IMG/VR virus record: IMGVR_UViG_2778261512_000019
Span: 1-22,976 of that record
Reading direction: 5' to 3' (one strand)
Source: a virus
Taxonomy: Duplodnaviria; Heunggongvirae; Uroviricota; Caudoviricetes
Length of the DNA: 22,976 bases
The position numbers and the translations under genes were made by a program. Below, piece by piece: positions 352-21,052 of the stretch (positions are counted from its first letter, which is position 1; each line of letters starts with the position of its first letter). The notes beneath the pieces were generated by a model. It made no database searches. It saw nothing but the letters and a program-made list of their open reading frames with translations, and had not been told where the DNA came from.

Positions 352-377
352 GAACCAGTTCCCACTGCCAGAGGGGA

Positions 378-437: not shown

Positions 438-476
438 ATACCCGCGAAAAATGAAATTTAACCAGGAGTGCCGCAT

Positions 477-2701: not shown

Positions 2702-2712
2702 CTGAGGTAATT

Positions 2713-2895
2713 ATGATCATGCTGATTCTCGCGCCTCTGGTGGGCGTGCTGGGGGGGCTTTTGCTGGCGTATGGGGCCTGGCTGATTTATCCCCCTGCGG
2801 GGTTTGTTGTTGCCGGGGCGTTGTGCCTGTTCTGGTCGTGGCTGGTGGCGCGATATCTCGACCGTACACAGATGTCTGTTGGTGGAGGTAAATAG
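2713..2895 (+). CDS. Small hydrophobic (2-TM) protein of unknown function
   Basis: 60-aa ORF with GAGGTAA 5 nt upstream of the ATG; two hydrophobic stretches ([22 protein letters not shown] and [17 protein letters not shown]); its stop overlaps the portal GTG start. Confidence 0.5.
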
Positions 2896-4764: not shown

Positions 4765-4778
4765 TCAGGAGAAATACG

Positions 4779-5984: not shown

Positions 5985-5991
5985 TCATTCA

Positions 5992-6017
5992 GGGGCGCGG
6001 AACCGCGCCCCCTGTTT
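5992..6017 (+). terminator. Rho-independent terminator after the capsid gene
   Basis: GGGGCGCGGAACCGCGCCCC perfect GC-rich hairpin followed by TGTTTT, 8 nt after the capsid stop codon. Confidence 0.65.
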
Positions 6018-6033
6018 TGACGGGTGAAGAATC

Positions 6034-6234
6034 ATGATCCTGAAACAAGATCTGAAATGGTCACCGGACGGTATGCGTGTTGAGGTCATTCGGGCCGGTG
6101 AGTATGACGACGGGGCGCTTCCTGCCCGGGTGCAGGAGATTGCACTTCAGGCCGGGTTAGCAGAGCGCGGAACCAGTGCAAAAAGCAGTAAAGCGACAAA
6201 AGAGAAAAAAGCCACGACCAGTAAAGAGGGCTGA
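6034..6234 (+). CDS. Hypothetical small protein with Lys-rich C-terminus
   Basis: 66-aa ORF just downstream of the capsid terminator; weak RBS; C-terminus KSSKATKEKKATTSKEG. Only positional support. Confidence 0.4.
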   Translation: MILKQDLKWSPDGMRVEVIRAGEYDDGALPARVQEIALQAGLAERGTSAKSSKATKEKKATTSKEG

Positions 6235-6236
6235 GT

Positions 6237-6560
6237 ATGCTTCTGACAATGGAAGAGATTAAAGCCCAACTCCGGCTGGATGAGGATTTCGATGCTGATG
6301 ACCGCCATCTGCAACTGCTGGCCTGTGCGGCGCAAAAGCGGACGGAAACGTATCTGAACCGGAAGCTCTATGCTCCGGATGAAACCATTCCGGACAGCGA
6401 TCCGGACGGGCTGCACCTGCCGGATGATATTCGTCTGGGGATGCTGATGCTTATCAGCCATTTTTACGAAAACCGCTCGTCGGTTACGGAAGTGGAGAAA
6501 CTCGACATGCCGCAGAGTTTTGGCTGGCTTGTCGGCCCGTACAGGTACTTTCCGCAATGA
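6237..6560 (+). CDS. Head-tail connector protein (gp6-like); true start may be the internal Met at 6249
   Basis: 107-aa ORF, N-terminus MEEIKAQLRLDEDFDADD... resembles phage gp6-like connector proteins; stop overlaps the next start (ATGA). Confidence 0.7.
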   Translation: MLLTMEEIKAQLRLDEDFDADDRHLQLLACAAQKRTETYLNRKLYAPDETIPDSDPDGLHLPDDIRLGMLMLISHFYENRSSVTEVEKLDMPQSFGWLVGPYRYFPQ

Positions 6561-6967
6561 AAATTCGTCAGGCGCAGACCAGCGCAACCTACATTCTGCC
6601 GGACCCCGGTGAACTGAATAAACGCGTCCTGATCCGCCTGCGGGTGGATATGCCCGCGGATAACTTTGGCGTGGAGCCTCAATACCCGGTTACGTTCCGG
6701 ACATGGGCGAAGGTTATCCAGACCAGTGCCACCACCTGGCAGGAAACCGCGCAGACCGGGGACGCCATCACCCATTACATCACCATTCGTTACCGCCGGG
6801 GGATCACCGCTGATTATGAGGTGGTCTGCGGTGACAGTGTGTACCGGGTGAAACGTCAGCGCGATCTGAACGGGGCGCGGCGCTTTCTGCTGCTGGAGTG
6901 TACGGAGCTGGGCGAATGTAGGCAGAGTCACGGAGGCAACAATGACGACTTCCTTTTTGCACGTTGA
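6557..6967 (+). CDS. Head closure / head-tail adaptor protein (SPP1 gp16-like)
   Basis: 136-aa ORF with FRTWAKV...ITIRYRRGI...YRV...RFLLLEC pattern typical of head-tail joining proteins. Confidence 0.7.
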   Translation: MKIRQAQTSATYILPDPGELNKRVLIRLRVDMPADNFGVEPQYPVTFRTWAKVIQTSATTWQETAQTGDAITHYITIRYRRGITADYEVVCGDSVYRVKRQRDLNGARRFLLLECTELGECRQSHGGNNDDFLFAR

Positions 6968-7448
6968 TTTTCAGCAGCCCGCGGAGATGCGCTTTAACCG
7001 CGCCCGTGTCAGGCGGGCGTTTGTCACGATTGGTCAGCGTCATATGCGTGATGCCCGTCGGCTGGTGATGCGCCGTGCGCGGTCGGCACCGGGTGAAAAC
7101 CCCGGTTATCAGACCGGACGCCTGGCTCGTTCGATTGGTTACATGGTACCCAGAGCCAGTAAACATCGCCCTGGTTTTATGGCACGTATAGCCCCTAACC
7201 AGCGTAATGGAGAGGGAAACCGCCGTATCACCGGTGATTTTTATCCGGCTTTTCTGTTCTATGGCGTGAGGCGAGGGGCAAAGCGTCGTCGCAGCCATCA
7301 TCGTGGTGCATCCGGTGGCAGCGGCTGGCGACTGGCTCCACGTAATAACTTTATGGTGGAAACTCTTGAAAAGAACCGCAGCTGGACACGCTATTTTCTG
7401 GCGCGGGAATTGCGTAAATCACTGAAGCCGGAGCGACGACACAGATGA
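6942..7448 (+). CDS. Arg-rich neck / virion morphogenesis protein (HK97 gp10-like or Mu G-like)
   Basis: 168-aa strongly basic ORF with GGAGG RBS; assignment is by position between head-closure and tail genes. Confidence 0.5.
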   Translation: MTTSFLHVDFQQPAEMRFNRARVRRAFVTIGQRHMRDARRLVMRRARSAPGENPGYQTGRLARSIGYMVPRASKHRPGFMARIAPNQRNGEGNRRITGDFYPAFLFYGVRRGAKRRRSHHRGASGGSGWRLAPRNNFMVETLEKNRSWTRYFLARELRKSLKPERRHR

Positions 7449-8005
7449 AACTGACGCCTGTTATTGCTGCGCTGCGTGCCCGCTGCCCGTATTTTGAAAA
7501 CCGGGTGGCAGGCGCGGCACAGTTCAAAAATCTGCCGGAGGTCGGAAAGCTGAGACTCCCGGCGGCGTATGTGGTACCGGGTGATGACTCTCCGGGAGAA
7601 AACAAAAGCCAGACCGACTACTGGCAGGAGCTGAAAGAGGGCTTCTCCGTGGTTGTCATACTGAGTAACGGGCGTGATGAGCGCGGTCAGTTTGCTTCGT
7701 ATGATGTGGTGGACGATGTCCGGCAGATGCTCTTTAAGGCTCTGCTGGGCTGGAACCCGGAGGCGTGCGGTAACCCGATTACCTATGACGGCGGCACGCT
7801 GCTGGATCTGAATCGTCATGAGCTGATTTATCAGTTCGATTTTTCGGTCATCAGCGAGCTGACTGAAGACGATACCCGCCAGCAGGATGATCTGAACAGT
7901 CTGGATGAACTGCAAACGCTGGCGATTGATGTTGATTATCTCGAGCCCGGTAACGGGCCTGACGGCGATATCGAACATCACACCGAAATAACCCTTCCTT
8001 CCTGA
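7445..8005 (+). CDS. Structural protein resembling Mu gp37 (DUF1834)
   Basis: 186-aa acidic ORF, translationally coupled (ATGA) to the previous gene and lying just upstream of the sheath gene; family assignment is tentative. Confidence 0.5.
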   Translation: MKLTPVIAALRARCPYFENRVAGAAQFKNLPEVGKLRLPAAYVVPGDDSPGENKSQTDYWQELKEGFSVVVILSNGRDERGQFASYDVVDDVRQMLFKALLGWNPEACGNPITYDGGTLLDLNRHELIYQFDFSVISELTEDDTRQQDDLNSLDELQTLAIDVDYLEPGNGPDGDIEHHTEITLPS

Positions 8006-8013
8006 GGATCCTC

Positions 8014-8184
8014 ATGTTTGTCAAACCTGTTAAAGGGCGGTCAGTTCCTGACCCTGCCCGCGGCGACCTTTTGCCCGCCGAAGGGCGAAATGTTGACGAG
8101 AACAACTACTGGCTGCGCCGTGAAGCAGCGGGTGATATCCGGCGCGTGAATAAAAAGGTGAACACCGATGACGATAAGCTTTAA
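8014..8184 (+). CDS. Small conserved protein (DUF2635-like), absent from the supplied ORF track
   Basis: 56-aa ORF (MFVKPVKGRSVPDPARGDLLPAEGRNVDENNYWLRREAAGDIRRVNKKVNTDDDKL) with GAGGA RBS 5 nt upstream; overlaps the sheath start; a similar small protein precedes the sheath gene in Mu-like tail clusters. Confidence 0.5.
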   Translation: MFVKPVKGRSVPDPARGDLLPAEGRNVDENNYWLRREAAGDIRRVNKKVNTDDDKL

Positions 8185-9664
8185 CACCATTCCGTCGAAT
8201 ACGCTGGTTCCGCTGTTTTATGCGGAAATGGATAACCAGGCGGCGAATACTGCACAGGACAGCGGAGCATCGCTGCTGATTGGTCATGCCAATAACGGTG
8301 CAGAGATTGTTGCCAACAGTCTGGTACTGATGTCGTCGGCAGACTATGCACGCCAGATTTGTGGTGCGGGAAGTCAGCTGGCGCGTATGGTCGAGGCTTA
8401 TCGCCAGACCGACCCGTTTGGCGAGCTGTATGTGATTGCCGTTCCTGAATCCACAGGCGCGGCGGCAACGGTTACGCTGACGGTGACCGGGGCGGCAACC
8501 GAAACCGGCACGGTGAATGTGTATGTGGGACGTACCCGCGTGCAGGCACCGGTGACTAACGGCGATAACGTCACGATGATTGCCAGCAGTATCCAGGATG
8601 CCATCAATGCCGTTCCGGCCCTGCCGTTTACGGCTTCATCTTCGGCAGGCGTGGTTACACTGACCGCGCGTCATAAGGGGCTTTGCGGGAATGAAATTCC
8701 TGTCAGCCTCAATTACTACGGCTTTGGTGGGGGCGAAGTGCTGCCAGCGGGCGTACAGATTGCCGTGGCGACGGGTACCGCCGGAACGGGTGCTCCGGTT
8801 CTCACCGGCGCGGTGGCTGCAATGGCGGATGAGCCGTTTGATTATATCGGCCTGCCGTTCAACGACACGGCCTCCGTTAACACGCTGGTGACCGAGATGA
8901 ACGATACCAGCGGTCGCTGGAGCTATGCGCGTCAGCTGTATGGTCATGTGTATACGGCAAAGATCGGCACGCTGTCAGAACTGGTGACCGCAGGTGACCA
9001 GTTTAACCAGCAGCACATTACCCTGGCGGGGTACGAAAAAGACACCCAGACGCCTGCCGACGAGCTGGCGGCAAGCCGTACCGCCCGCGCAGCGGTGTTT
9101 ATCCGCAACGATCCGGCACGTCCCACGCAGACCGGTGAGCTGGTGGGTATGCTGCCTGCGCCGAAGGGGAAACGGTTCACGATGACCGAACAACAGACCC
9201 TGCTGTCTCATGGCGTGGCAACGGCGTATGTCGAAAGCGGGGTACTGCGCATTCAGCGTGATGTCACCACGTACAGGAAAAACGCTTACGGGGTTGCGGA
9301 TAACAGCTACCTCGACAGCGAGACGCTGCATACCAGTGCGTATGTACTGCGCAAACTGAAATCCGTCATTACCAGTAAGTACGGGCGTCACAAGCTTGCC
9401 AGCGACGGTACCCGCTTTGGTCCCGGTCAGGCGATTGTCACCCCGGCGGTGATCAAAGGGGAACTGCTGGCAACCTACCGTCAGCTTGAGCGTGCGGGGA
9501 TCGTGGAAAACTACGAACTGTTTAAGCAGTACCTGGTTGTGGAGCGTGATGCCAGCGATCCGAACCGCCTGAACACGCTGTTCCCGCCTGACTATGTTAA
9601 CCAGTTGCGTGTCTTTGCCGTGGTTAACCAGTTCCGTCTTCAGTATTCAGAGGAGTCTGCATAA
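8168..9664 (+). CDS. Contractile tail sheath protein (Mu L-like)
   Basis: 498-aa ORF, N-terminus MTISFNTIPSNTLVPLFYAEMDN... resembles Mu-type sheath proteins; followed by a 118-aa tube gene with TAATG overlap. Confidence 0.85.
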   Translation: MTISFNTIPSNTLVPLFYAEMDNQAANTAQDSGASLLIGHANNGAEIVANSLVLMSSADYARQICGAGSQLARMVEAYRQTDPFGELYVIAVPESTGAAATVTLTVTGAATETGTVNVYVGRTRVQAPVTNGDNVTMIASSIQDAINAVPALPFTASSSAGVVTLTARHKGLCGNEIPVSLNYYGFGGGEVLPAGVQIAVATGTAGTGAPVLTGAVAAMADEPFDYIGLPFNDTASVNTLVTEMNDTSGRWSYARQLYGHVYTAKIGTLSELVTAGDQFNQQHITLAGYEKDTQTPADELAASRTARAAVFIRNDPARPTQTGELVGMLPAPKGKRFTMTEQQTLLSHGVATAYVESGVLRIQRDVTTYRKNAYGVADNSYLDSETLHTSAYVLRKLKSVITSKYGRHKLASDGTRFGPGQAIVTPAVIKGELLATYRQLERAGIVENYELFKQYLVVERDASDPNRLNTLFPPDYVNQLRVFAVVNQFRLQYSEESA

Positions 9665-10020
9665 TGGCCCGTATCGGGGGAACCTGTTATTTCAAAATTG
9701 ACGGTCAGCAGCTATCGCTGACCGGCGGCATTGAGGTGCCCATGAACAGGACGGTCAATGATGACATCATCGGCCTGGACGGTTCAGTGGACCGCAAGGA
9801 AACTCACCGTGCGCCTTATGTTAAAGGGACCTTCAAGGTGCCGAAGAATTTTCCGGTGAGCAAAATCACCTCGTCTGATGAGATGACCATCACTGCCGAG
9901 CTGGCGAACGGTCAGGTCTATGTACTGTCGTCTGCCTGGCTGCACGGCGAAGCGAACCATAATGCCGAAGAAGGGACGGTTGATCTTGAGTTCCACGGTG
10001 AAGAAGGGGATTACCAGTAA
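9664..10020 (+). CDS. Tail tube protein (Mu M-like)
   Basis: 118-aa ORF immediately after the sheath gene; size and position. Confidence 0.8.
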   Translation: MARIGGTCYFKIDGQQLSLTGGIEVPMNRTVNDDIIGLDGSVDRKETHRAPYVKGTFKVPKNFPVSKITSSDEMTITAELANGQVYVLSSAWLHGEANHNAEEGTVDLEFHGEEGDYQ

Positions 10021-10289
10021 TGAAAGAGCTTGAGTTAAAGAAACCGATTACCGCTCATGGCGAGACACTCTCCGTACTGGAGTTTGATGAGCCCACCGGG
10101 AAAGATGTCCGCGAGCTGGGGTATCCCTACCAGATGAATCAGGATGAGTCCGTCAGACTTCTGGCGCATGTGGTATCGAAATACATTGTGCGGCTGGCGA
10201 AAGTGCCGCAAAACTCTGTCGACCAGATGTCTCCGGCAGACCTGAATGCTGCGGCGTGGCTTGTGGCTGGTTTTTTCCTCCAGGCCTGA
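10020..10289 (+). CDS. Tail assembly chaperone (G-like, upstream frame)
   Basis: 89-aa ORF between the tube and tape-measure genes; ends just after a TTTTTTC slippery site. Confidence 0.7.
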   Translation: MKELELKKPITAHGETLSVLEFDEPTGKDVRELGYPYQMNQDESVRLLAHVVSKYIVRLAKVPQNSVDQMSPADLNAAAWLVAGFFLQA

Positions 10290-10438
10290 CGGCTGAATAC
10301 CTCACTGATCGCTTCTTTGACTGCGCCAGCTACTGGCGCATTAATCCCTTCGAATTGCTGAATATGCCGATCAGTGAAATTCCCTTGCTGGTCAGTCAGG
10401 CAAACAGGATAGAGCAGGAGAAACGCACACATGGCTGA
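10020..10438 (+). CDS. Tail assembly chaperone -1 frameshift fusion product (GT-like); shift at the T TTT TTC heptamer 10271-10277, then frame 2 to the stop at 10438
   Basis: The 10256-10438 ORF is in the -1 frame relative to 10020-10289 and overlaps it exactly at the slippery heptamer; the arrangement precedes the tape measure gene as in lambda G/GT. Confidence 0.55.
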
Positions 10439-12266
10439 ATTTGAGCTTAAGGCGTTGATCACCGGTGTCGACAGACTTTCTCCCGCGCTGTCGAAAATGC
10501 AAAAGAAAATCCGGGGATTTAAACGCCAGGCGGAAGAAGCATCACAGGGTGGGCTGGCGCTTGGTGGCGGACTGGCAGCGGGTCTGACGCTTTCCCTGAA
10601 ATCTTATGCCGATCAGGAAAACGCCGCCACCGGGCTGAAAGTCGCCATGATGGATGCGAACGGCGAGGTCGGAAAGCGCTTTCAGGACATCAATAAACTG
10701 GCTATTGGCCTGGGTAACCAGCTACCCGGTACAACGGCTGATTTCCAGAACATGATGCAGATGCTGGTGCGTCAGGGGATCCCGGCAGAAAACATTCTGG
10801 GTGGTGTGGGTAAAGCGACAGCTTATCTTGCGGTACAACTGAAAAAAACACCGGAAGCGGCTGCTGAGTTTGCTGCAAAGATGCAGGATGCTACCGGAAC
10901 GGCGTCAGAAGACATGATGGGGCTGTTCGACACTATCCAGAAGGCGTTTTATCTGGGCGTTGACGATACCAACATGTTGTCCTTCTTCACTAAAACCAGT
11001 TCTGTTCTGAAGATGGTGAACAAGGACGGTCTTCAGGCTGCACAGAGCCTTGCCCCTATCAGCGTCATGATGGATCAGATGGGGATGAACGGGGAGTCGG
11101 CAGGTAATGCCCTGCGAAAAGTTATCCAGTCCGGATTAAGCGTTAAGAAAATCAGGGACGTCAATAAAGTCATGGCCCGCCAGAAACTCGGAGTGCAGCT
11201 CGATTTTACTGACGGCAAAGGGAGTTTTGGCGGTCTTGATAACATGTTCAGGCAACTGGCAAAGCTGCGAAAACTGACCGACGTTAAGCGAACAGGTGTA
11301 CTTAAGGCAATATTTGGTGATGATGCCGAAACCCTTCAGGTGGTCAATGCTCTGATCGATAAAGGAAAGGATGGTTACGATCAGATCCAGCAGAAGATGA
11401 ATAAACAGGCCAGCCTGAATAAACGTGTTCAGGCACAGCTTGGTACGCTGTCCAACCTGTGGGAGGCAATGACAGGGACCGCAACTAACGGCCTTGCGGC
11501 TATTGGCGGCGCATTTTCTGGTGACGCTAAAAATATCACACAATGGCTGGGGGAGTTGGGGGAGAAATTCACGAAGTTTGCGGATGAAAATCCCCGGGTT
11601 ATTCGCGGCGTCGTCGGGCTTGCTGCCGGTCTTGCGATTCTGAAACTGGGATTGATGGGCGTGGGCAGTGCCATCAGTATTGTCAGCAGGATTATGTCGA
11701 TGACGCCGATTGGCATGATTGCGACGGCGATTGCTCTGGCTGCGGGATTAATTATCACTAACTGGGATGTTGTCGGACCTTATTTCAAGAAGCTCTGGGA
11801 AACCATTGGTCCTTATTTTGAGGCAGGTTGGGAACTTCTGAAGAAGGTTTTTGCCTGGTCGCCGCTGGGGATGGTGATCAATAACTGGGGACCGGTTGTT
11901 AAGTGGTTTCAGGATATGTGGGATAAGCTGAAGCCGATTATTGAATGGTTTACCGACAGTTCCGGTGACACGGTCGATGCCATTAACTCGGCGCAGTGGG
12001 GCGCGGGTGCTTATGATGCTTATGGGACGGGAATACCGGCACGGGGATACACTCCTTATCCGGCGGTGGATCCGGCTCAGGCAAACAACGCCTCCGATGC
12101 CACAGGCTCGAATCCCTTCATGATTAACAAAGCTTCTGCGCCAAAAGTTGATGGTGAGATCAAGGTCTCTTTTGTGAATTCGCCTCCGGGTATGCGGGTT
12201 ATGGAAACGCGATCCAGCGGTTTTGATGTCAGCCATGATGTTGGCTATACGCGCTTTGGCAGGTAA
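10431..12266 (+). CDS. Tail tape measure protein
   Basis: 611-aa ORF with a coiled-coil-like N-terminal half and a Gly/Ala-rich hydrophobic segment (VVGLAAGLAILKLGLMGVGSAISIV); directly follows the chaperone pair. Confidence 0.85.
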   Translation: MAEFELKALITGVDRLSPALSKMQKKIRGFKRQAEEASQGGLALGGGLAAGLTLSLKSYADQENAATGLKVAMMDANGEVGKRFQDINKLAIGLGNQLPGTTADFQNMMQMLVRQGIPAENILGGVGKATAYLAVQLKKTPEAAAEFAAKMQDATGTASEDMMGLFDTIQKAFYLGVDDTNMLSFFTKTSSVLKMVNKDGLQAAQSLAPISVMMDQMGMNGESAGNALRKVIQSGLSVKKIRDVNKVMARQKLGVQLDFTDGKGSFGGLDNMFRQLAKLRKLTDVKRTGVLKAIFGDDAETLQVVNALIDKGKDGYDQIQQKMNKQASLNKRVQAQLGTLSNLWEAMTGTATNGLAAIGGAFSGDAKNITQWLGELGEKFTKFADENPRVIRGVVGLAAGLAILKLGLMGVGSAISIVSRIMSMTPIGMIATAIALAAGLIITNWDVVGPYFKKLWETIGPYFEAGWELLKKVFAWSPLGMVINNWGPVVKWFQDMWDKLKPIIEWFTDSSGDTVDAINSAQWGAGAYDAYGTGIPARGYTPYPAVDPAQANNASDATGSNPFMINKASAPKVDGEIKVSFVNSPPGMRVMETRSSGFDVSHDVGYTRFGR

Positions 12267-12289
12267 TGAAAAATTAATCTGTTAATGAG

Positions 12290-12311
12290 TCCCACTCCGG
12301 TGGGATTTTTT
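12290..12311 (+). terminator. Weak hairpin plus T-run between tape measure and the next gene (possible attenuator)
   Basis: TCCCAC-TCCG-GTGGGA 6-bp stem followed by TTTTTT, 24 nt after the tape measure stop. Confidence 0.3.
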
Positions 12312-12326
12312 ATGTACGGAGTTTAT

Positions 12327-13655
12327 ATGACGTGGAAAGACAGACTTCAGGACGCGTCATTTCGCGGTGTGCCGTTTAAGGTTGAAGAAGAAAGTACGGG
12401 AACCGGTCGTCGTGTGGAAACGCACGAATACCCGAACCGCGACAAACCCTATACCGAAGACCTGGGGAAAATCACTTTCCGCCCGTCCATCACGGCTTAT
12501 GTGGTGGGAGATGACTGCTTTGACCAGCGCGATCGCCTGATTGACGCGCTGAATAAACCCGGTCCCGGCACGCTTGTCCATCCGACTTACGGTGAGCTGA
12601 AAGTCTGTGTTGACGGAGAGGTTCGGGTCAGCACATCGAAGAGTGAAGGGCGTATTGTCCGCTTTGACCTGAAGTTTGTCGAAGCGGGAGAACTCTCTTA
12701 CCCCACTTCAGGTGCGGCGACGGCGCAGACGCTGATGTCATCCTGTTCTGCACTGGATGACTGCATCAGTGACAGCTTCAGCGGTTTCAGTATCGATGGC
12801 GTGGCGGATTTCGTGCAGAACGACGTTATTGGTAATGCCAGCATAATGCTGGGGTATGTTTCTGATGCGATGAAAGTGGTGGATTCTGCCGTATCGGATG
12901 CCGCCAGGCTGTTGCAGGGGGATATCTCGGTACTTCTGCCGCCGCCATCGTCAGGCAAAAATTTCGTTGAGCAGGTGCAGAAAATGTGGCGTACCGGGAA
13001 ACGCCTTTATGGTAACGCCAGCGATCTGGTCACCATGATCAAAACGCTTTCCGGTGTCAGCCTCGGCAGTGATCTGCAACCGCGCGGCGTCTGGAAAACG
13101 GACAGTAAAACCACCGCTACGGCGACGCAGCAGCGTAACGTGGTTGCCAGCACCCTTCGTACGACCGCAATCAGCGAAGCGGCGTATGCCGTCACCCGAT
13201 TGCCTGCGCCAACAACTTCCGCGGTGATGCAGAATGCCGCAGTGGGGCAGGCAACAACAGCTGCACAGAGCACCGGCTGGCCTTCCGTCACGCATCCGGC
13301 ACTGAACAATGCACCGGCGATGAAAAACACGGTTGATCTGCCGACGTGGGAAGAACTGACTGACATTCGCGACACACTGAATACGGCAATTGATAAGGAG
13401 TTGTCCCGTACAACCAGTGATGCGCTGTTTCTGGCGCTGCGCCGGGTGAAAGCAGATCTGAATGCGGATATCAACACGCGCCTTGAACAGTCTGCACGGA
13501 TCATTCAGCGCACACCGGATGAGGTTTTACCCGCGCTGGTGCTGGCGGCGACCTGGTTTGATAACGCGACGCGTGACGCGGACATTATCCGGCGTAATGC
13601 TATTACGCATCCCGGCTTTGTGCCGGTGATCCCTCTGAAGGTGCCAGTGCAATGA
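12327..13655 (+). CDS. Mu N-like DNA circularization / baseplate hub-associated protein
   Basis: N-terminus MTWKDRLQDASFRGVPFKVEE... matches the conserved start of Mu gpN-family proteins; GGAG lies 6 nt upstream of 12327. The longer ORF from 12285 would include the hairpin and has no RBS. Confidence 0.8.
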   Translation: MTWKDRLQDASFRGVPFKVEEESTGTGRRVETHEYPNRDKPYTEDLGKITFRPSITAYVVGDDCFDQRDRLIDALNKPGPGTLVHPTYGELKVCVDGEVRVSTSKSEGRIVRFDLKFVEAGELSYPTSGAATAQTLMSSCSALDDCISDSFSGFSIDGVADFVQNDVIGNASIMLGYVSDAMKVVDSAVSDAARLLQGDISVLLPPPSSGKNFVEQVQKMWRTGKRLYGNASDLVTMIKTLSGVSLGSDLQPRGVWKTDSKTTATATQQRNVVASTLRTTAISEAAYAVTRLPAPTTSAVMQNAAVGQATTAAQSTGWPSVTHPALNNAPAMKNTVDLPTWEELTDIRDTLNTAIDKELSRTTSDALFLALRRVKADLNADINTRLEQSARIIQRTPDEVLPALVLAATWFDNATRDADIIRRNAITHPGFVPVIPLKVPVQ

Positions 13656-14731
13656 ACGATAACGTCACGCTACGGGTAAATGGCCGGGAGTGGAATGGCT
13701 GGACATCGGTGCGCATCGGTGCCGGTATTGAACGGCTGGCGCGGGATTTCAGTGTGGAGATCACCCGCCAGTGGCCGGGAGATGAGGGTATCACCACGCT
13801 TCAGCCGCGCATTAAAAACGGTTCAAAAGTGGAAGTGCTGATTGGTGATGAGCGGGTGATCACCGGCTGGGTGGAGGCGACTCCCGTTCGTTACGATGCC
13901 CGTTCGGTCAGCACAGGTATTGCCGGACGCAGTCTGACCGCTGACCTGATTGACTGTGCAGCCGAACCGACACAGTTTAACGGACGATCGCTGGTACAGA
14001 TTGCGCAGGCGCTTGCTGCGCCTTTCGGCATTGAGGTGGTGAACAGCGGTGCGCCGTCGGGTGTTATTCCTGATGTCCAGCCTGATCACGGTGAAACGGT
14101 GATTGAGGTAATCAACAAAATACTCGGTCAGCAGCAGGCACTGGCTTACGACGATCCGCACGGCAGGCTGGTGATTGGCGGTATTGGCTCAACGCGGGCA
14201 CATACCGCGCTGGTACTTGGGGAAAACATCCTTTCCTGCGATACGGAGAAGAGTATCCGGGAGCGGTTTTCTGTTTACCAGGTGGCGGGGCAGCGTACCG
14301 GAAACGACGATGATTTCGGTGAGGCCACCACCACCGCGCTGCGGGCCCGCACAGAGGACGCATTTATTGCCCGTTACCGTCCGATGTATATCAGGCAGAC
14401 AGGGCAGGCTACGGGGGCAGGCTGTATTGCGCGTGCTGACTTTGAAGCCCGGCAACGGGCGGCGCGGACGGATGAAACCACCTATGTGGTGCAGGGCTGG
14501 CGACAGGGTAACGGTACGCTGTGGCAACCCAACCAGCGGGTGATTGTCTTTGATCCGGTCTGTGGTTTTGACAATACCGAACTGCTTGTTTCGGAAGTCA
14601 CGTTTACTCAGGACCAGAACGGCACCCTGACGGAAATCCGTGTCGGCCCGCCTGATGCTTATCTGCCTGAACCTGAAGACCCCGGCGCGCGGAAAAAGAA
14701 AAAAGCCAGAGTACAGGAGGACCCGTTCTGA
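13652..14731 (+). CDS. Mu P-like baseplate hub protein
   Basis: 359-aa ORF coupled (ATGA) to the gpN-like gene, in the conserved Mu-like baseplate order. Confidence 0.75.
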   Translation: MNDNVTLRVNGREWNGWTSVRIGAGIERLARDFSVEITRQWPGDEGITTLQPRIKNGSKVEVLIGDERVITGWVEATPVRYDARSVSTGIAGRSLTADLIDCAAEPTQFNGRSLVQIAQALAAPFGIEVVNSGAPSGVIPDVQPDHGETVIEVINKILGQQQALAYDDPHGRLVIGGIGSTRAHTALVLGENILSCDTEKSIRERFSVYQVAGQRTGNDDDFGEATTTALRARTEDAFIARYRPMYIRQTGQATGAGCIARADFEARQRAARTDETTYVVQGWRQGNGTLWQPNQRVIVFDPVCGFDNTELLVSEVTFTQDQNGTLTEIRVGPPDAYLPEPEDPGARKKKKARVQEDPF

Positions 14732-15279
14732 TGAGGACGATTGAAGCCATGCAGCGACAACTTCTCGGCCTGATTGGGCGGGCAGTGGTGAAAAGCATCA
14801 GTGCCGCCACGAAATGTCAGACCGTGGATGTGTCCCTGATTGCCGGTGAACCCAAAGCCGGGGTTGAACATCTTGAACCCTACGGTTTTACCGCAAGGGC
14901 AAACAGCGGTGCGGAAGCGGTGGTGTTGTTTCCGGATGGCGACCGTTCTCATGCGGTGGTTGTTACGGTGTCGGACCGGCGCTACCGCCTGAAAGGGCTG
15001 CATACGGGGGAGGTGGCTGTCTATGACGATCAGGGGCAGTCCGTGACGCTGACCCGGGAGGGGATCGTGGTGGACGGTGCAGGTAAAACAATCACGTTTC
15101 GCAATGCGCCTAAGGCTCGTTTTGAAATGGACCTGGAAGTGACCGGACAGGTGAAAGACCTGTGCGACTCCACCGGCACCACCATGTCAGCGATGCGGCT
15201 TGCCTATAACGGGCATCGTCACAGAGAGAACGGTCAGGGCAGTAACACCGACAAACCTGATAAAGCGATGGAGGCATGA
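14731..15279 (+). CDS. Baseplate spike / assembly protein V-like (Mu gp45-like)
   Basis: 182-aa ORF in the conserved position and size range; overlapping start/stop with its neighbours. Confidence 0.75.
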   Translation: MRTIEAMQRQLLGLIGRAVVKSISAATKCQTVDVSLIAGEPKAGVEHLEPYGFTARANSGAEAVVLFPDGDRSHAVVVTVSDRRYRLKGLHTGEVAVYDDQGQSVTLTREGIVVDGAGKTITFRNAPKARFEMDLEVTGQVKDLCDSTGTTMSAMRLAYNGHRHRENGQGSNTDKPDKAMEA

Positions 15280-15704
15280 TGGAACTGTGGCTGACGGTGA
15301 ACGGTAAACGCACCTGCGCCAGCGCACCGCTGGATCCGCTGACCCGTGCCGTGGTGATTTCCCTGTTCACCTGGCGGCGGGCTGAACCTGATGACAATGC
15401 CGACGTCCCGATGGGATGGTGGGGGGATACCTGGCCTGCGGTACAGAATGACCGTTACGGCTCCCGACTGTGGCTGCTTCAGCGCAGCAAACTGACCAAT
15501 CAGCTGGGGCAGACGGTAAGGGGATATATCCGCGAATGCCTGCAATGGATGATTGATGACGGCGTGGTGTCCCGTATTGATCTGGATATCCGCCGCACCG
15601 GGATTAATGAGCTGGGTAACAGTATCACCCTCTGGCGTCGTGACGGACCGGTAATGATTTCTTTTGATGATCTGTGGAGTGCGATAACGCATGGCGGACA
15701 GTGA
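15276..15704 (+). CDS. Baseplate wedge protein, GPW/gp25 family (Mu gp46-like)
   Basis: 142-aa ORF upstream of the baseplate J-like gene; size and position. Confidence 0.75.
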   Translation: MMELWLTVNGKRTCASAPLDPLTRAVVISLFTWRRAEPDDNADVPMGWWGDTWPAVQNDRYGSRLWLLQRSKLTNQLGQTVRGYIRECLQWMIDDGVVSRIDLDIRRTGINELGNSITLWRRDGPVMISFDDLWSAITHGGQ

Positions 15705-16749
15705 ATTTCAACGCCCGACGCTGGCAGAAAATATCAGTATGCTCCGTAACGATTTATTCGCCAGGCTGGACGTCAGCGACACGCTCCGGCGCATGGATGA
15801 AGACGTGCGGGCAAAGGTGTATGCGGCGGCGCTGCATACGGTTTACGGTTACATCGATTATCTGGCAATGAACATGCTGCCTGACCTGTGCGATGAGTCC
15901 TGGCTGGCGCGACATGCTGCGATGAAACGGTGTCCGCGCAAGGGGGCCACGTCTGCCAGCGGGTATATGCGCTGGGAAGGTGTCAGCGATGGCCTGAAGG
16001 TGACCGCCGGGAGTGTTATTCAGCGCGATGACCTGGTTCAGTACACGACAACTGACGATGCAACCAGCTCCGGTGGTGTCCTGCGCGTGCCGATCGCCTG
16101 CTCAAGTGCAGGTGCGGTCGGTAACGCTGACGACGGTACGGCATTAATCCTGGTCACGCCGGTGAATGGTCTGCCGTCTTCCGGTGTGGCTGACACCATT
16201 ACAGGCGGATTTGATACTGAAGAGCTGGAAACGTGGCGCGCCCGCGTCATTGAGCGGTATTACTGGACGCCGCAGGGCGGGGCTGACGGGGACTATGTCG
16301 TTTGGGCTAAAGAAGTGCCCGGCATTACCCGCGCATGGACATACCGTCACTGGATGGGAACGGGAACTGTCGGTGTGATGATTGCCAGCAGTGACCTGAT
16401 TAATCCCATTCCGGAAGAATCAACGGAAACGGCAGCAAGACAACATATCGGGCCACTGGCCCCGGTGGCAGGCTCTGATTTGTATGTATTCAGGCCGGTG
16501 GCACATACGGTGGATTTTCATATCCGCGTGACGCCGGACACACCAGAAATACGGGCTGCCATTACCGCGGAGTTGCGTTCGTTCCTGCTGCGTGATGGTT
16601 ATCCGCAGGGAGAACTGAAGGTATCGCGTATCAGTGAGGCGATTTCCGGTGCGAACGGGGAATACAGCCATCAGTTGCTTGCACCGGTGGACAATATCTC
16701 CATTGCGAAAAACGAACTGGCGGTACTGGGGACGATTTCATGGACGTGA
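15691..16749 (+). CDS. Baseplate J-like protein (Mu gp47-like); intact counterpart of the K-12 e14 jayE remnant
   Basis: 352-aa ORF immediately upstream of the ymfQ-like gene, matching the e14 order jayE-ymfQ-stfP. Confidence 0.8.
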
Positions 16750-17324
16750 CAAACGATGATTACATCCGCCTGTTATCGGCACTGTTGCCGCCCGGTCCGG
16801 CGTGGTCAGCCAGCGATCCGGCGATTGCCGGTGCGGCACCGTCATTAACCCGTGTTCATCAGCGTGCGGATGCCCTGATGCGGGAGCTGGATCCGCGCAC
16901 CACCACTGAACTGATAAACCGCTGGGAGCGTCTGTGCGGTCTGCCGGATGAATGTATTCCCGCAGGGACACAGACCCTTCGTCAGCGTCAGCAACGGCTG
17001 GATGCGAAGGTTAACCTGGCGGGCAGCATCAACGAGAATTTTTATCTTGCACAGCTTGCTGCCCTGGGCAGACCAGATGCCAACATCACGCGATACGATA
17101 AAAGCACGTTCACCTGCTCATCGGTCTGTACTGACGCGGTGAATGCGCCGGAATGGCGGTATTACTGGCAGGTCAACATGCCAGCCGCCACAAACACCAC
17201 CTGGATGACATGTGGCGATCCCTGTGATTCCGCGCTGCGTATCTGGGGCGACACCGTTGTCGAATGTGTGCTTAACAAACTCTGCCCGTCGCATACCTAC
17301 GTAATTTTTAAATATCCGGAGTAA
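16740..17324 (+). CDS. ymfQ: Tail protein YmfQ (Mu gp48-like, DUF2313)
   Basis: 194-aa ORF, the same length as K-12 e14 YmfQ, directly upstream of the side tail fibre gene. Confidence 0.75.
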
Positions 17325-17327
17325 TCC

Positions 17328-18149
17328 ATGCATCGTATAGACACGAAAACCGCGCAGAAGGATAAGTTCGGCGCGGGTAAGAACGGTTTTACCCGTGGTA
17401 ACCCCCAGACCGGCACACCTGCCACCGATCTGGATGATGACTACTTTGACATGTTGCAGGAGGAACTTTGCAGTGTTGTGGAGGCATCCGGTGCCAGCCT
17501 GGAGAAGGGGCGGCATGACCAGCTGCTTACAGCGCTTCGTGCGCTGCTGTTAAGCCGCAAGAATCCGTTTGGCGATATCAAATCGGATGGCACGGTGAAA
17601 ACGGCTCTCGAAAACCTTGGTTTGGGAGAAGGTGCTCCAGCTATTGGCGTTCCGTTCTTCTGGCCGTCCGCCGCAATGCCAAATACTGTAATCGACAGTT
17701 GGTCCAGTATGGTGTTTTTGAAGTTCAACGGCGCGAAATTCTCTGCCACTGATTACCCTGTGCTGGCGAAAGTGTTTCCGGCGCTAGCATTACCTGACGC
17801 ACGGGGTGATTTCATTCGTATCTGGGATGATGGGCGCGGGATTGATGTCGGACGTACCCTACTTTCAGGGCAATCACACACAATTATGGATCATGCACAC
17901 AATATGGAATTGTGGACGGGGGACGGGCTTGCCGCAGGAAGTGCACGGGAAGGAGTAAACCCAGGAATACTGGCTACATACGGTGACGGGGGAATAGTTA
18001 AAACGGACGAACCCGGTCTTAAGGTGCCTTCCTCACTACGAGCTCTTAGCTCTCGTAGTGTTAAACGTTATGGTGAAATTAGTGGAAATGTAGATACAGA
18101 AACCCGTCCACGAAATATTGCATTTAACTTTCTGGTGAGGGCTAAATAA
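17328..18149 (+). CDS. stfP: Side tail fibre protein: constant N-terminal part (to about 17620) fused to the variable C-terminal part in the current orientation
   Basis: 273-aa ORF; the invertase crossover site lies inside it at 17612-17631 (encoding ENLGLGE); Gly-rich C-terminal region. Confidence 0.75.
17612..17631. repeat. Left invertase recombination site (pix-like) inside the tail fibre gene
   Basis: AAACCTTGGTTTGGGAGAAG; its inverted partner at 19477-19496 differs at one position; AAACC-TT-GGTTT dyad with a 2-bp centre, as in Gin/Hin/Cin/Pin sites. Confidence 0.75.
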
Positions 18150-18742
18150 TGATACCTGTTTTTGATGAAAATGGGCTGGCTACAGTGCCGGGCGATATGC
18201 GTTGTTTTTATTATAATGCAGTAACGTATGAATATACCGGCTGGTCTGATGAATATATTAATACTGGCGTAAGTATACCCGCCTGTTCCACTGGTATTGA
18301 CCCGGGCGAAAACATCCCGGGAAAAGTGGCAGTATTTACGGGTAAGGGATGGAGCCATGAAGAAGACCATCGCAATGAGACCGTTTACTCAACTGAAAAT
18401 GGCGCAGCTGTTACAGTGGATTATATCGGTGCCATCAAAGACGGTTATGTCACGCTTTCACCGTTAACGCCATACGATAAATGGGATGGTGAGAAATGGG
18501 TGACGGATACCGAGGCACAGCATAGCGCCGCAGTAGAAGCGGCAGAAGCACAGCGCCAGTCGCTGATTGATGCTGCAATGGCTTCCATCAGTCTGATTCA
18601 ACTGAAATTACAGGCTGGGCGGAAGCTGACGCAGCCAGAAAACACCCGACTTAACGCTGTGCTGGATTACATTGACGCGGTGACGGCAACAGATACCAGC
18701 ACAGCGCCGGACGTCATCTGGCCTGAACTGCCGGAGGCGTAG
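18149..18742 (+). CDS. tfaP: Tail fibre assembly protein (expressed orientation)
   Basis: 197-aa ORF with TAATG coupling to the fibre gene; C-terminal motif TAPDVIWPELPEA typical of Tfa proteins. Confidence 0.75.
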   Translation: MIPVFDENGLATVPGDMRCFYYNAVTYEYTGWSDEYINTGVSIPACSTGIDPGENIPGKVAVFTGKGWSHEEDHRNETVYSTENGAAVTVDYIGAIKDGYVTLSPLTPYDKWDGEKWVTDTEAQHSAAVEAAEAQRQSLIDAAMASISLIQLKLQAGRKLTQPENTRLNAVLDYIDAVTATDTSTAPDVIWPELPEA

Positions 18743-19157
18743 GCCATTCAATATCTGGCGCACCGGAAGTATCGACCAGTTCCAGTGCGTCCAGATAATC
18801 CAGCCACAAATTATATTGCGCCAGTTCCTCACCTTTCAGACGACCAATTGATGCTTTACCTGGCCATTGTTTACTGTTTATGTATTCGTTGGCCTGGTTA
18901 ATCAATTGCTGCTTTTTAGTTTCGGCTGATGCAATTTGTTCTTCACGTGTTGGTGGAGGTATATCTGCCCATGCAGGCAGTCCATCCTCTCCGACACATC
19001 TGTATTTTCCTTCTGGTGGTGTATCATAGAAATATTCCCTGAAAATTACTTCGTCTATATCAACACCTTTTTCTTCAGGCCATTCACCTTTTTCAACATA
19101 AAGAGACTGAAGTTCGTAAGGATATGCCAGGTTGTTTACGTACAGATATTTCATCAT
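18714..19157 (-). CDS. tfaE: Tail fibre assembly protein (alternative, currently silent orientation)
   Basis: 147-aa minus-strand ORF with C-terminal GAPDIEWPTPP Tfa motif; TAATG-coupled to the alternative fibre tip upstream on the minus strand. Confidence 0.75.
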   Translation of the reverse strand: MMKYLYVNNLAYPYELQSLYVEKGEWPEEKGVDIDEVIFREYFYDTPPEGKYRCVGEDGLPAWADIPPPTREEQIASAETKKQQLINQANEYINSKQWPGKASIGRLKGEELAQYNLWLDYLDALELVDTSGAPDIEWPTPPAVQAR

Positions 19158-19496
19158 TACCAGCCCTTAGCGAAAAACGCACCACCTTCAAGACCATAAT
19201 TGCAGTGAGCTATGAAGCCGGTAGTGCTCCAGTTGGTCGCCCCCCACATATTCCCGCCCCCGAAACCACCATCGCACACAATTACAATGCCCGGTGTCTG
19301 TGTAAATGGAATCGGGAATGAAACATTGGCGGATACAGGCCCGTGTTCACCAGGAAAACTAATTCGTCCCCACTGTTCAATTGAACCATCTGGCATTTTT
19401 CGCCAGCCTGAACCTGATGCATATGATGACATATCAGGTATCTGATTTTCCCCTGTTCCCACATTTCGTTTTGCCGCTTCTCCCAAACCAACGTTT
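19157..19496 (-). CDS. stfE: Alternative tail fibre C-terminal segment (no own start; would fuse in frame to the constant N-terminus after inversion)
   Basis: Minus-strand frame reads [17 protein letters not shown]... from the right recombination site, in the same frame as ENLGLGE at the left site; Gly-rich tip ([16 protein letters not shown]). Confidence 0.7.
19477..19496. repeat. Right invertase recombination site (pix-like), about 60 bp upstream of pin
   Basis: CTTCTCCCAAACCAACGTTT, whose reverse complement AAACGTTGGTTTGGGAGAAG matches the left site at 19 of 20 positions. Confidence 0.75.
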
Positions 19497-19557
19497 ATGA
19501 AAATGCAGAAATAACGAGCAAATGGCATCATTCCTGCTTTTGTCAGGGGGAGCTACC

Positions 19558-20112
19558 ATGCTTATTGGCTATGTACGCGTATCAACAAATGACCAGAACA
19601 CAGATCTACAACGTAATGCGCTGAACTGTGCAGGATGCGAGCTGATTTTTGAAGACAAGATAAGCGGCACAAAGTCCGAAAGGCCGGGACTGAAAAAACT
19701 GCTCAGGACATTATCGGCAGGTGACACTCTGGTTGTCTGGAAGCTGGATCGGCTGGGGCGTAGTATGCGGCATCTTGTCGTGTTGGTGGAGGAGTTGCGC
19801 GAACGAGGCATCAACTTTCGTAGTCTGACGGATTCAATTGATACCAGCACACCAATGGGACGCTTTTTCTTTCATGTGATGGGTGCCTTGGCTGAAATGG
19901 AGCGTGAACTGATTGTTGAACGAACAAAAGCTGGACTGGAAGCTGCTCGCGCACAGGGGCGAATTGGTGGACGTCGTCCCAAACTTACACCAGAACAATG
20001 GGCACAGGCCGGACGATTAATTGCATCAGGAGTTCCTCGCCAGAAGGTGGCGATTATCTATGATGTTGGTGTGTCAACTTTGTATAAGAGGTTTCCTGCA
20101 GAGGATAAATAA
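19558..20112 (+). CDS. pinE: Serine DNA invertase Pin (Gin/Hin/Cin family)
   Basis: 184-aa product starting MLIGYVRVSTNDQNTDLQ with the catalytic Ser in YVRVSTNDQ and a C-terminal HTH (VGVSTLYKRF); matches my recollection of e14 Pin; lies beside the inverted repeats. Confidence 0.9.
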   Translation: MLIGYVRVSTNDQNTDLQRNALNCAGCELIFEDKISGTKSERPGLKKLLRTLSAGDTLVVWKLDRLGRSMRHLVVLVEELRERGINFRSLTDSIDTSTPMGRFFFHVMGALAEMERELIVERTKAGLEAARAQGRIGGRRPKLTPEQWAQAGRLIASGVPRQKVAIIYDVGVSTLYKRFPAEDK

Positions 20113-20218
20113 AGTTAAAGACACTTTGTGTACAAAAGAAAATAAAACAACAGCAACTTGTTGCAATTTTATCAATAAAAGTAGTATTGTCGTAAAAAAT
20201 TGATTAAAGATTAATATT

Positions 20219-21052
20219 ATGCATGTTTTTGATAATAATGGAATTGAACTGAAAGCTGAGTGTTCGATAGGTGAAGAGGATGGCGTTTATGGTCTAATCC
20301 TTGAGTCGTGGGGGCCGGGTGACAGAAACAAAGATTACAATATCGCTCTTGATTATATCATTGAACGGTTGGTTGATTCTGGTGTATCCCAAGTCGTAGT
20401 ATATCTGGCGTCATCATTAGTCAGAAAACATATGCATTCTTTGGATGAAAGAAAAATCCATCCTGGTGAATATTTTACTTTGATTGGTAATAGCCCCCGC
20501 GATATACGCTTGAAGATGTGTGGTTATCAGGCTTATTTTAGTCGTACGGGGAGAAAGGAAATTCCTTCCGGCAATAGAACGAAACGAATATTGATAAATG
20601 TTCCAGGTATTTATAGTGACAGTTTTTGGGCGTCTATAATACATGGAGAACTATCAGAGCTTTCACAGCCTACAGATGATGAATCGCTTCTGAATATGAG
20701 GGTTAATAAATTAATTAAGAAAACGTTGAGTCAACCCGAGGGCTCCAGGAAACCAGTTGAGGTAGAAAGACTACAAAAAGTTTATGTCCGAGACCCAATG
20801 GTAAAAGCTTGGATTTTACAGCAAAGTAAAGGTATATGTGAAAACTGTGATAAAAATGCTCCGTTTTATTTAAATGATGGAAGCCCATACTTGGAAGTGC
20901 ATCATGTAATTCCCCTGTCTTCAGGTGGTGCTGATACAACAGATAACTGTGTTGCCCTTTGTCCGAATTGCCATAGAGAATTGCACTATAGTAAAAATGC
21001 AAAAGAACTAATCGAGATGCTTTACGTTAATATAAACCGATTACAGAAATAA
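20219..21052 (+). CDS. mcrA: McrA, modified-cytosine-dependent (type IV) restriction endonuclease with C-terminal HNH domain
   Basis: 277-aa ORF (the K-12 McrA length) with C-terminal CENCD...HHVIPLSSGGADTTDNCVALCPNCHRELH zinc-finger/HNH motif; AT-rich gene between pin and attR, as in e14. Confidence 0.9.
   Translation: MHVFDNNGIELKAECSIGEEDGVYGLILESWGPGDRNKDYNIALDYIIERLVDSGVSQVVVYLASSLVRKHMHSLDERKIHPGEYFTLIGNSPRDIRLKMCGYQAYFSRTGRKEIPSGNRTKRILINVPGIYSDSFWASIIHGELSELSQPTDDESLLNMRVNKLIKKTLSQPEGSRKPVEVERLQKVYVRDPMVKAWILQQSKGICENCDKNAPFYLNDGSPYLEVHHVIPLSSGGADTTDNCVALCPNCHRELHYSKNAKELIEMLYVNINRLQK

Follow-up and report, generated by a model that had tools for sequence, protein, structure and literature searches.

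The Pin/P-segment inversion switch of Escherichia coli K-12 e14 has been known since the 1980s, its description reportedly being that of Plasterk and van de Putte in 1985. Two phage relatives, the G segment of Mu with its invertase Gin and the C segment of P1 with Cin, have the same arrangement as the locus considered here: a constant fibre N-terminus lies outside the segment, two tip-plus-chaperone cassettes face each other within it, and the invertase gene adjoins it. The sites are also alike, being 26 bp long with an AAACC-NN-GGTTT core. However, the segment is 1.9 kb here as against 3.0 kb in Mu and 4.2 kb in P1, the fibre, of 273 or 207 aa, is much shorter than the 504-aa Mu S and has unrelated tips, and in P1 cin, unlike pin here, is on the other side of the segment and reads towards it. 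Hin of Salmonella, with its hix sites, is of the same Fis/enhancer-dependent invertase subfamily, but it flips a promoter where Pin flips coding cassettes. For the K-12 locus, whose sites are those of the present one, coexisting orientations have been reported (Goldberg et al. 2014, PMC4272514), as has inversion driven by PinE or PinQ (PMC12529663).

The window, i.e. the whole 22,976-nt stretch analysed, is a 100% match to E. coli JB2, where it is part of a prophage of about 43 kb, an e14/SfV-type myovirus inserted in icd, with the switch at its right end. Downstream of the switch are pinE, mcrA and an icd remnant, with intE/xisE and the intact icd at the opposite prophage end. The prophage has full head, tail and lysis genes and its tail module is complete; two IS insertions are present, both outside the window. 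A second JB2 prophage is SfV-like and has its own pinE, the product of which is 96% identical to the Pin considered here, and identical pix sites. With a probability of about 0.93, the locus is a Pin/pix DNA-inversion switch of the e14 prophage family that swaps the tail-fibre tip. The first-pass annotation had assigned it to the Mu G / e14 P type, and that assignment holds, with a serine invertase, two 26-bp sites and an in-frame alternative tip with its own chaperone all present. The type of switch is already known, and novelty is limited to the alleles of the cassettes.

The longest inverted pair found in a repeat search has 20-nt arms at 17612-17631 and 19477-19496, 95% complementary (19/20) and 1845 nt apart. 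A search for the 20-mer with up to three mismatches gave two copies only, with 0 expected from 100 dinucleotide shuffles, so the 20-bp inverted pair earlier described as bracketing about 1.9 kb is confirmed and is above chance. The recombination sites themselves are each 26 bp, form an imperfect dyad around a 2-bp core, and share their architecture with gix of Mu and cix of P1. The left pix, at 17605-17630, is CTCTCGAAAACC TT GGTTTGGGAGAA, with its crossover dinucleotide at 17617-17618, and the right, at 19478-19503, is TTCTCCCAAACC AA CGTTTATGAAAA, with its crossover dinucleotide at 19490-19491. Their inner half-sites are identical, and the core of one is TT and that of the other the reverse complement of AA; the two are in inverted orientation, and the central dinucleotides are compatible for inversion only. 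The invertible P segment so delimited is 17617-19491, 1,875 bp from centre to centre. The left site is the same as the K-12 e14 left site, a site in the second JB2 prophage and the lone site of SfII, and the right is base-for-base identical to the K-12 e14 right site. Further pix-like sites, as in a multi-segment shufflon such as Min of p15B, were looked for in the window and none was found beyond the two. The earlier claim that the sites encode ENLGLGE and NVGLGE in the same phase proved correct: on the plus strand the left site is read gaa aac ctt ggt ttg gga gaa (E N L G L G E), on the minus strand the right is read aac gtt ggt ttg gga gaa (N V G L G E), and the central TT occupies codon positions 2-3 at both.

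In the present state (state A) the tail-fibre gene is a plus-strand ORF of 273 aa at 17328-18149. Its constant part, 17328-17616, comprises codons 1-96 and the first base of codon 97, and a variable Collar-type tip occupies 17617-18149. The present fibre matches PHROG tail-fibre families, its Pfam Collar match is weak (E=0.0027), and the tip resembles the T4 gp37 tip (2XGF, E=3e-5). Next on the same strand, at 18149-18742, is the gene for a TfaE-like tail-fibre assembly chaperone of 197 aa (Pfam Caudo_TAP, E=1e-27; phrog_105). Identity to the K-12 counterparts is 42% for the tip (StfE fragment) and 63% for the chaperone (TfaE); by homology, the present cassette is thus of the stfE/tfaE type. 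The labels tfaP and tfaE were swapped in the first-pass annotation, since it is the silent chaperone that is TfaP-like (59% identical to K-12 TfaP, over its C-terminal part).

The silent cassette is on the minus strand. Its chaperone gene, at 18714-19157, encodes 147 aa (Pfam Caudo_TAP, E=4e-33; phrog_188), and the two tfa genes overlap tail to tail by 29 bp. The alternative, Gp53-like tip as it stands is a 124-aa ORF at 19157-19531 (Pfam Gp53-like_C, E=1e-7), annotated as a gene, which begins outside the segment with an ATG of its own and an 18-aa leader; the coding part of the tip within the segment is 19157-19491. Among PDB sequences, this tip is similar to gp92, a short tail fibre (9ZD7, E=7e-7), and to the fibre of R2 pyocin (6CT8, E=4e-4); it shows 34% identity to the in-silico K-12 StfE2, having the same type of domain as the K-12 StfP tip. 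In-silico inversion of 17617-19491 yields an uninterrupted fibre ORF of 207 aa, so that the constant 97 codons are followed either by the present tip of 176 aa or by the alternative of 110 aa. The exchange of a 176-aa end and its chaperone for another end and chaperone is accordingly borne out at the level of the reading frame, the alternative end being 110 aa where about 109 had been claimed. By their Pfam, PHROG and PDB sequence matches, the two tips are of different fibre-tip families, with a Caudo_TAP chaperone gene after each.

Both orientations were sought in public assemblies, and rather than a single one being found, complete genomes with the same cassette pair (coverage of at least 80%) include 18 in the state of the window and 17 in the inverted state. 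One comparison involves the isolates 0H23 and 0H15, members of one ST399 O154:H12 clone (PMC11169474), for which in-silico inversion of the 1,875-bp interval leaves 0 mismatches over 5,815 bp; this limits the crossover to the 15-bp identity block 17617-17631 as a whole and not to the central TT. In the assembly of CX15, the chromosome and an extra contig are in opposite states, the central 1,885 bp of the contig being reversed at 99.8% identity. Inversion thus occurs at these sites in loci 97.6-99.9% identical to the window, and by extrapolation from these loci switching would also be expected in JB2 itself. The recurrence of NLGL-type motifs in unrelated tail fibres, e.g. in the 9ZD7 alignment, could be taken to mean that the inverted repeat is the footprint of a conserved NLGLGE fibre motif encoded on opposite strands of a segment that is fixed. 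However, 15 consecutive bases are identical at both sites despite codon freedom, the sites are identical to the proven K-12 sites, and a fixed segment is contradicted by the two orientations in genomes, the exact inversion between 0H23 and 0H15, and the two states of CX15; the probability left to it is close to negligible. (In phage vB_EcoM-689R6, pin and mcrA are seemingly inverted with respect to the fibre gene, but the record is a scaffold of part of the genome and the join contains Ns, so that it was dropped as evidence of a variant architecture.)

Comparison with K-12 e14 brings out both a shared framework and divergent contents. The 26-bp sites on both sides are the same, fibre residues 1-103 have 99% identity to K-12 StfP, and the order of genes (ymfQ, fibre, tfa, tfa, tip, pin, mcrA, icd remnant) is unaltered, with McrA and YmfQ respectively 98.2% and 96.4% identical to their K-12 orthologues. 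Both loci also pair a Collar tip with a Gp53-like_C one, and in both every tip has its Caudo_TAP chaperone. The alleles differ, with identities of 42% for the Collar tip, 63% and 59% for the TfaE-like and TfaP-like chaperones, and about 34% for the Gp53-like tip. The segment is 1,875 bp in the JB2 prophage as against 1,797 bp reported for K-12, and the host element is a prophage of about 43 kb where K-12 has a 15-kb e14 remnant. The orientation in the window is opposite to that of the MG1655 reference and corresponds to the K-12 ‘inverted’ StfP2/StfE2 state. A different type of relationship is seen with the serotype-converting Shigella phages SfI, SfII, SfIV and SfV, whose head, tail and baseplate module is about 97% identical to window positions 1-17631, a stretch that takes in the left pix and the constant part of the fibre. 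In SfII, which lacks an invertase and has a lone pix site, there is only one tip, which is fixed, and one chaperone; its homology to the window ends exactly at the end of the left site.

The invertase gene, pin (pinE in RefSeq), is on the plus strand at 19558-20112 and encodes a serine DNA invertase of 184 aa (Pfam Resolvase, E=1.5e-51; HTH_7, E=1.5e-13). Its start is 61 nt past the end of the right repeat arm, in keeping with the distance of about 60 bp beyond the right site given before. Pin has 97.8% identity to K-12 PinE, aligns with the Gin crystal chains (3UJ3) over residues 1-182 (E=2e-94), and has Ser9 within the motif MLIGYVRVST. Residues of Hin tied to activation by Fis and the enhancer are Q151, R154 and L155 together with the basic helix-B residues 47, 48 and 51 (PMC3798978); Pin carries QAGRL at 150-154 (Q150/R153/L154) and GLKKLLR at 44-50 (K46/K47/R50), and these align with Gin and a Hin-like invertase. 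Whether the adjacent pin is the main source of invertase is a separate matter. The second JB2 prophage, whose pix sites are identical and which carries a pinE too, could provide its 96% identical Pin in trans, or an invertase of the PinQ/PinR type might act, leaving the adjacent gene a minor role; when over-produced in K-12, PinQ gave 88% inversion as against 49% for PinE (PMC12529663). However, the adjacent pin is intact and nearly identical to the active K-12 PinE, and deletion of pinE locks the segment in K-12 (PMC12529663), so that flipping mainly in trans is quite improbable; moreover, it would change the catalyst and not the identity of the element.

For the recombinational enhancer, the first-pass annotation had given an expected range of 19558-19750, and an interval inside it is predicted from alignments and from colinearity with the cin enhancer, which the P1 GenBank annotation puts at cin nt 19-90. 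The predicted interval lies at about 19576-19647 in the 5′ end of pin, the placement being by homology only. Across this interval pin, gin and cin align without gaps, with 57 of 72 bases the same in pin and cin. Codons 7-29 have a higher synonymous identity (0.53, as against 0.39 elsewhere, from pairs that are non-independent), and in 7 invertase genes, whose products share as little as 55% amino-acid identity, the DNA of the block GTATCAACAA does not vary. Scanning the 5′ end of pin for Fis sites with GNNYRWWWWWYRNNC, as had been suggested, did yield several matches, but these were moderate and the scan by itself was not discriminating. Those kept as candidate 15-bp Fis cores, GTATCAACAAATGAC at 19579-19593 and GTGCAGGATGCGAGC at 19628-19642, are the two that keep their position in gin, cin and a hin-like gene; their agreement with the degenerate Fis consensus is moderate, 9-10 of 13 weighted positions. 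The predicted geometry is similar to that of the Hin enhancer, with a spacing of about 64 bp and about 95 bp between the proximal Fis core and the nearest site, where Hin has 65 bp and about 100 bp (PMC3798978).

From these features, Pin dimers would bind the two inverted 26-bp pix sites and an invertasome would form on supercoiled DNA together with the Fis-bound enhancer in the first 90 bp or so of pin. Staggered cuts, 2 bp apart, would then be made in both sites at the central TT/AA, and half of the tetramer would rotate by 180 degrees before religation of the ends, leaving the 1,875 bp flipped. Cutting at the central dinucleotide is inferred, as is the dependence on Fis and the enhancer. 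With the left site at codon 97, and the late promoter and fibre N-terminus remaining outside the segment, the flip would exchange the receptor-binding tip at the C-terminus together with the chaperone gene downstream of it, state A giving the Collar-type tip with the TfaE-like chaperone and state B the Gp53-like tip with the TfaP-like chaperone. The two tips presumably bind different receptors and, by analogy with Mu S/S′, these are probably LPS-core variants.

An alternative view of what is selected takes the lysogen as the main beneficiary, with the 124-aa ORF being expressed in the present orientation and blocking other phages, i.e. a phage-defence toggle. According to Kirigo et al. (2025), who worked with K-12, StfE2 prevents T2 from adsorbing and the inverted state gives protection (PMC12529663). 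The ORF starts at an ATG of its own outside the segment, is annotated as a gene, and is an analogue of StfE2, with 34% identity and the Gp53-like_C domain in common. Yet the published effect derives largely from plasmid over-expression and docking, and the tip is only a distant relative of the K-12 one. In a promoter scan of 17000-20400, sites were no more numerous than in shuffles, and in the spacer between pix and pin, 19497-19560, it gave no convincing sigma-70 promoter for pin or for the 124-aa ORF. The tail module of the JB2 prophage being complete, the classical virion role has a direct use, and defence as the main function is unlikely. The defence and virion roles are mutually compatible, and by analogy with K-12 a dual job can be envisaged in this apparently near-intact prophage, the virion having the Collar-type tip while the lysogen's 124-aa ORF (19531-19157) would mask the surface and lower adsorption of unrelated phages. 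That is a doubtful proposition, but were it true, a single inversion would couple virion host range reciprocally to phage resistance of the lysogen, and the divergent tip alleles would be expected to confer different spectra of protection.

As a discovery, the tail-fibre switch described here carries little weight. The locus does show the e14 switch in a full-length prophage with tip alleles unlike those of K-12, and would be a useful start for tests of the connection lately reported between phage defence and the orientation of the P segment. In practical terms, it is of use in annotation and assembly. In existing annotation, the fibre in one state is called ‘hypothetical protein’, and silent tips appear as separate or incomplete genes. 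One assembler output the minority orientation as a spurious ‘plasmid’.

Two inverted-repeat arms at 17612-17631 (AAACCTTGGTTTGGGAGAAG) and 19477-19496, 19/20 complementary and 1,845 nt apart, form the longest inverted pair within 15-22 kb, and a 20-mer search allowing up to three mismatches recovers two copies only in the window and none in 100 dinucleotide-preserving shuffles. Extended to the 26-bp DNA-invertase format, the arms become the pix sites, i.e. the recombination sites of the Pin invertase, at 17605-17630 (CTCTCGAAAACC-TT-GGTTTGGGAGAA) and 19478-19503 (TTCTCCCAAACC-AA-CGTTTATGAAAA), with identical inner and different outer half-sites, a build shared with Mu gix and P1 cix. Since the cores are TT and AA, the sites align solely in the way that gives inversion. 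The left arm is read as E-N-L-G-L-G-E in a 273-aa fibre ORF (17328-18149, plus strand) and the right arm as N-V-G-L-G-E in a pin-proximal ORF of 124 aa (19531-19157, minus strand), the central TT being codon positions 2-3 in both, and in-silico inversion of 17617-19491, the 1,875-bp P segment, yields an open fibre ORF of 207 aa. The arms, their common phase and the resulting exchange of tips had been proposed in the first-pass annotation, whose figures (a 176-aa tip, an alternative of ~109 aa and ~60 bp to the invertase start) were right.

The rival view of the repeat as no more than the relic of a motif is contradicted by genomes in both orientations, by an exact inversion between two isolates and by one assembly with both states. 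With the window version and a constructed inverted version both searched against 5,426 complete E. coli genomes, the window arrangement was found at coverage of at least 80% in 18 and the inverted arrangement in 17, with ten single-piece alignments spanning both junctions for each orientation; the search for isolates of both kinds suggested in the first-pass annotation was thus productive. Both orientations are present within a single meat-plant clone, ST399 O154:H12 (0H15, 0H18, 0H23, 0H24, 0H25 and 0H26), and within a second clone, the CX strains (PMC11169474). Across a 5,815-bp locus the segment is the sole difference between 0H23 and 0H15, and once 1,875 bp are inverted at the central dinucleotides, 0 mismatches remain. 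The single C/G difference of the outer half-sites remains with the flanks, so that crossover is confined to the 15-bp block 17617-17631; this comparison is consistent with, but does not prove, crossover at the central TT. In the CX15 assembly the chromosome has one state and an 18.4-kb linear contig, ‘plasmid unnamed5’ (NZ_CP081745.1), the other; the flanks match at 99.9% identity and the central 1,885 bp run in reverse, from which it follows that both forms were in a single culture. The contig, a chromosomal prophage end with a flipped P segment, has numerous frameshifts, as is usual for long-read contigs of low coverage, and its status as a plasmid was rejected in favour of an assembly artefact from a mixed-orientation culture. 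Phage vB_EcoM-689R6 (ON470584.1, 1-2600), where pin, mcrA and the icd remnant are joined across Ns to a reversed, truncated fibre gene, was rejected as a different architecture, being a partial genome scaffolded together at the invertible region. For K-12, whose locus has these very sites, published work shows coexisting orientations and inversion driven by PinE and PinQ (PMC4272514; PMC12529663).

The adjoining serine invertase gene, pin (19558-20112, plus strand), encodes 184 aa with Resolvase and HTH_7 domains, 97.8% identical to K-12 PinE and alignable over residues 1-182 with Gin crystal chains (E=2e-94). It has QAGRL at residues 150-154 plus K46/K47/R50, whose Hin counterparts are tied specifically to Fis/enhancer activation (McLean et al., PMC3798978). 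A recombinational enhancer had been expected in 19558-19750, without being pinpointed; that expectation can be sharpened, as the Cin enhancer is annotated at cin nt 19-90 in the P1 record, pin, gin and cin align gap-free across their first 210 nt, and pin equals cin at 57/72 bases within the interval, together pointing to a predicted Pin enhancer at 19576-19647. Two candidate Fis core 15-mers with G at -7 and C at +7, at 19579-19593 (GTATCAACAAATGAC) and 19628-19642 (GTGCAGGATGCGAGC), keep their positions in gin, cin and a hin-like gene. They jointly cover 64 bp; their centres are separated by 49 bp, and the proximal one is ~95 bp away from the right crossover. For Hin, an enhancer of 65 bp has been described that carries a Fis site at either end, lies ~100 bp from hixL and has TAATG-type A/T tracts in between (PMC3798978), and TAATG is likewise present in pin between the candidate cores. 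In five divergent invertase genes the fraction of identical synonymous codons is 0.53 in codons 7-29 vs 0.39 in 30-130, which would favour this placement but is only supportive because the gene pairs are non-independent; GTATCAACAA is invariant down to 55% protein identity.

The standard invertasome mechanism is the best-supported account of the switch. Pin dimers would occupy both pix sites, with a Fis-bound enhancer in the pin 5′ end; the sites would be cut with a 2-bp stagger at TT/AA, and subunits would rotate before the ends are religated, exchanging tip and chaperone (the tail-fibre assembly gene after each tip) while promoter and fibre N-terminus stay fixed. Catalysis chiefly in trans, by PinQ-type enzymes or the Pin of another prophage, is possible, and E. 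coli strain JB2 (NZ_CP182203.1), a 100% match to the window, does have a second pinE with identical pix sites. This second, SfV/e14-like prophage is ~1.27 Mb away (chromosome 4,374,022-4,388,873), with its own pinE (96% amino-acid identity), pix sites at 6306-6331 and 8216-8241 of that locus, and a current state opposite to the window's; the Collar tip, silent there, and the accompanying 197-aa chaperone match the window's expressed pair at 99.4-99.5% identity. The two Pin systems should cross-react in trans, and four identical pix sites per JB2 chromosome could in principle support larger rearrangements.

What an invertasome-driven flip would exchange are two tip types. The one now expressed belongs to the Collar-type fibre ends. 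It has 42% identity to the StfE fragment of K-12 (Pfam Collar E=1e-15 for that fragment; the tip's own match is weak, E=0.0027) and resembles the T4 gp37 tip 2XGF (E=3e-5), including the C-terminal NIAFN-[FY]-[LI]-VR motif; its chaperone of 197 aa is 63% identical to TfaE. The silent tip belongs to the Gp53-like_C family, as does the K-12 StfP tip, and resembles the R2 pyocin fibre (6CT8) and gp92, a short tail fibre (9ZD7); the chaperone that goes with it has 147 aa and 59% identity to TfaP. The first-pass assignment of tfaP to the current tip and tfaE to the alternative therefore had the labels swapped. The window is in the state called inverted (StfP2/StfE2) for K-12 by Kirigo et al. (PMC12529663). 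The chaperone genes converge, their 3′ ends overlapping by 29 bp (18714-18742), and since both encode a conserved C-terminal LDY[IL]DA on opposite strands, an 18-nt inverted repeat (18661-18678/18787-18804, 83%) flanks the overlap and makes the segment centre near-symmetric. RefSeq names change with orientation: in the 0H strains both states have the fibre as a ‘hypothetical protein’, and the pin-proximal piece is, by state, a ‘gp53-like domain-containing protein’, ‘hypothetical protein’ or ‘phage tail protein, incomplete’, so that one gene is split into differently named products among genomes.

The silent tip is a complete ORF (19157-19531, minus strand, 124 aa) because its ATG and a hydrophobic 18-aa leader, conserved with K-12, sit outside the segment, in the 54 bp that separate the right pix site from pin. 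The ORF is an analogue of K-12 StfE2 at 34% identity; StfE2 reportedly prevents T2 from adsorbing (PMC12529663). That the switch serves chiefly for lysogen defence via this ORF is unlikely, a promoter scan having found no convincing one for it in the pix-pin spacer, though defence is possible as an added role.

Identical sites (both base-for-base those of K-12 MG1655 e14), a near-identical enzyme, the same neighbours and the same tip-type pair make this the e14 Pin/P-segment system itself, beyond mere resemblance; the first-pass reading as an invertible tail-fibre switch of the e14 P type is supported, with its gene names corrected and the enhancer placed more sharply. The switch was already known and the differences from K-12 are modest: cassette alleles are 34-63% identical, the K-12 segment is reported as 1,797 bp vs 1,875 bp, and the MG1655 reference has the opposite orientation. 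The host element differs too: in JB2 it is a ~43-kb full-length relative of e14, given its structural module and upstream genes through intE and intact icd, whereas the K-12 e14, which shares the right end, is a remnant of 15 kb. In RefSeq the window opens with a complete module for head, tail and baseplate; then come a YmfQ-family protein and the fibre (‘hypothetical protein’), two genes for tail-fibre assembly, a ‘gp53-like domain-containing protein’ and pinE, with mcrA and a 3′ remnant of icd ahead of the host genes iraM to ycgX. On the upstream side JB2 has lysis genes, Q, replication genes, ymfK/ymfT/ymfL, xisE, intE and intact icd, as well as two IS elements. Within JB2 3,133,000-3,160,000, outside the window, an IS1B copy lies between yfdQ and an HD-hydrolase gene, and a copy of ISKpn26 (IS5-like) separates the Q antiterminator region from the lysis genes; these insertions may have disabled induction or late gene expression. 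The iss serum-survival gene adjoins the lysis cassette.

The structural module (1-17631) is ~97% identical to Shigella phages SfI, SfII, SfIV and SfV, homology ending exactly at the left pix site end (17631/17632). SfII has a lone identical 26-bp site within its fibre gene (SfII 17254-17279), a single fixed tip and chaperone, and no invertase. The recombination site is thus at the same time a mosaic joint for fibre modules. Over their first 26 nt, the TfaE-like gene (18149-18174, MIPVFDENG) and mcrA (20216-20241, MHVFDNNG) are 81% identical, a likeness that may be accidental or may mark an old recombination joint.
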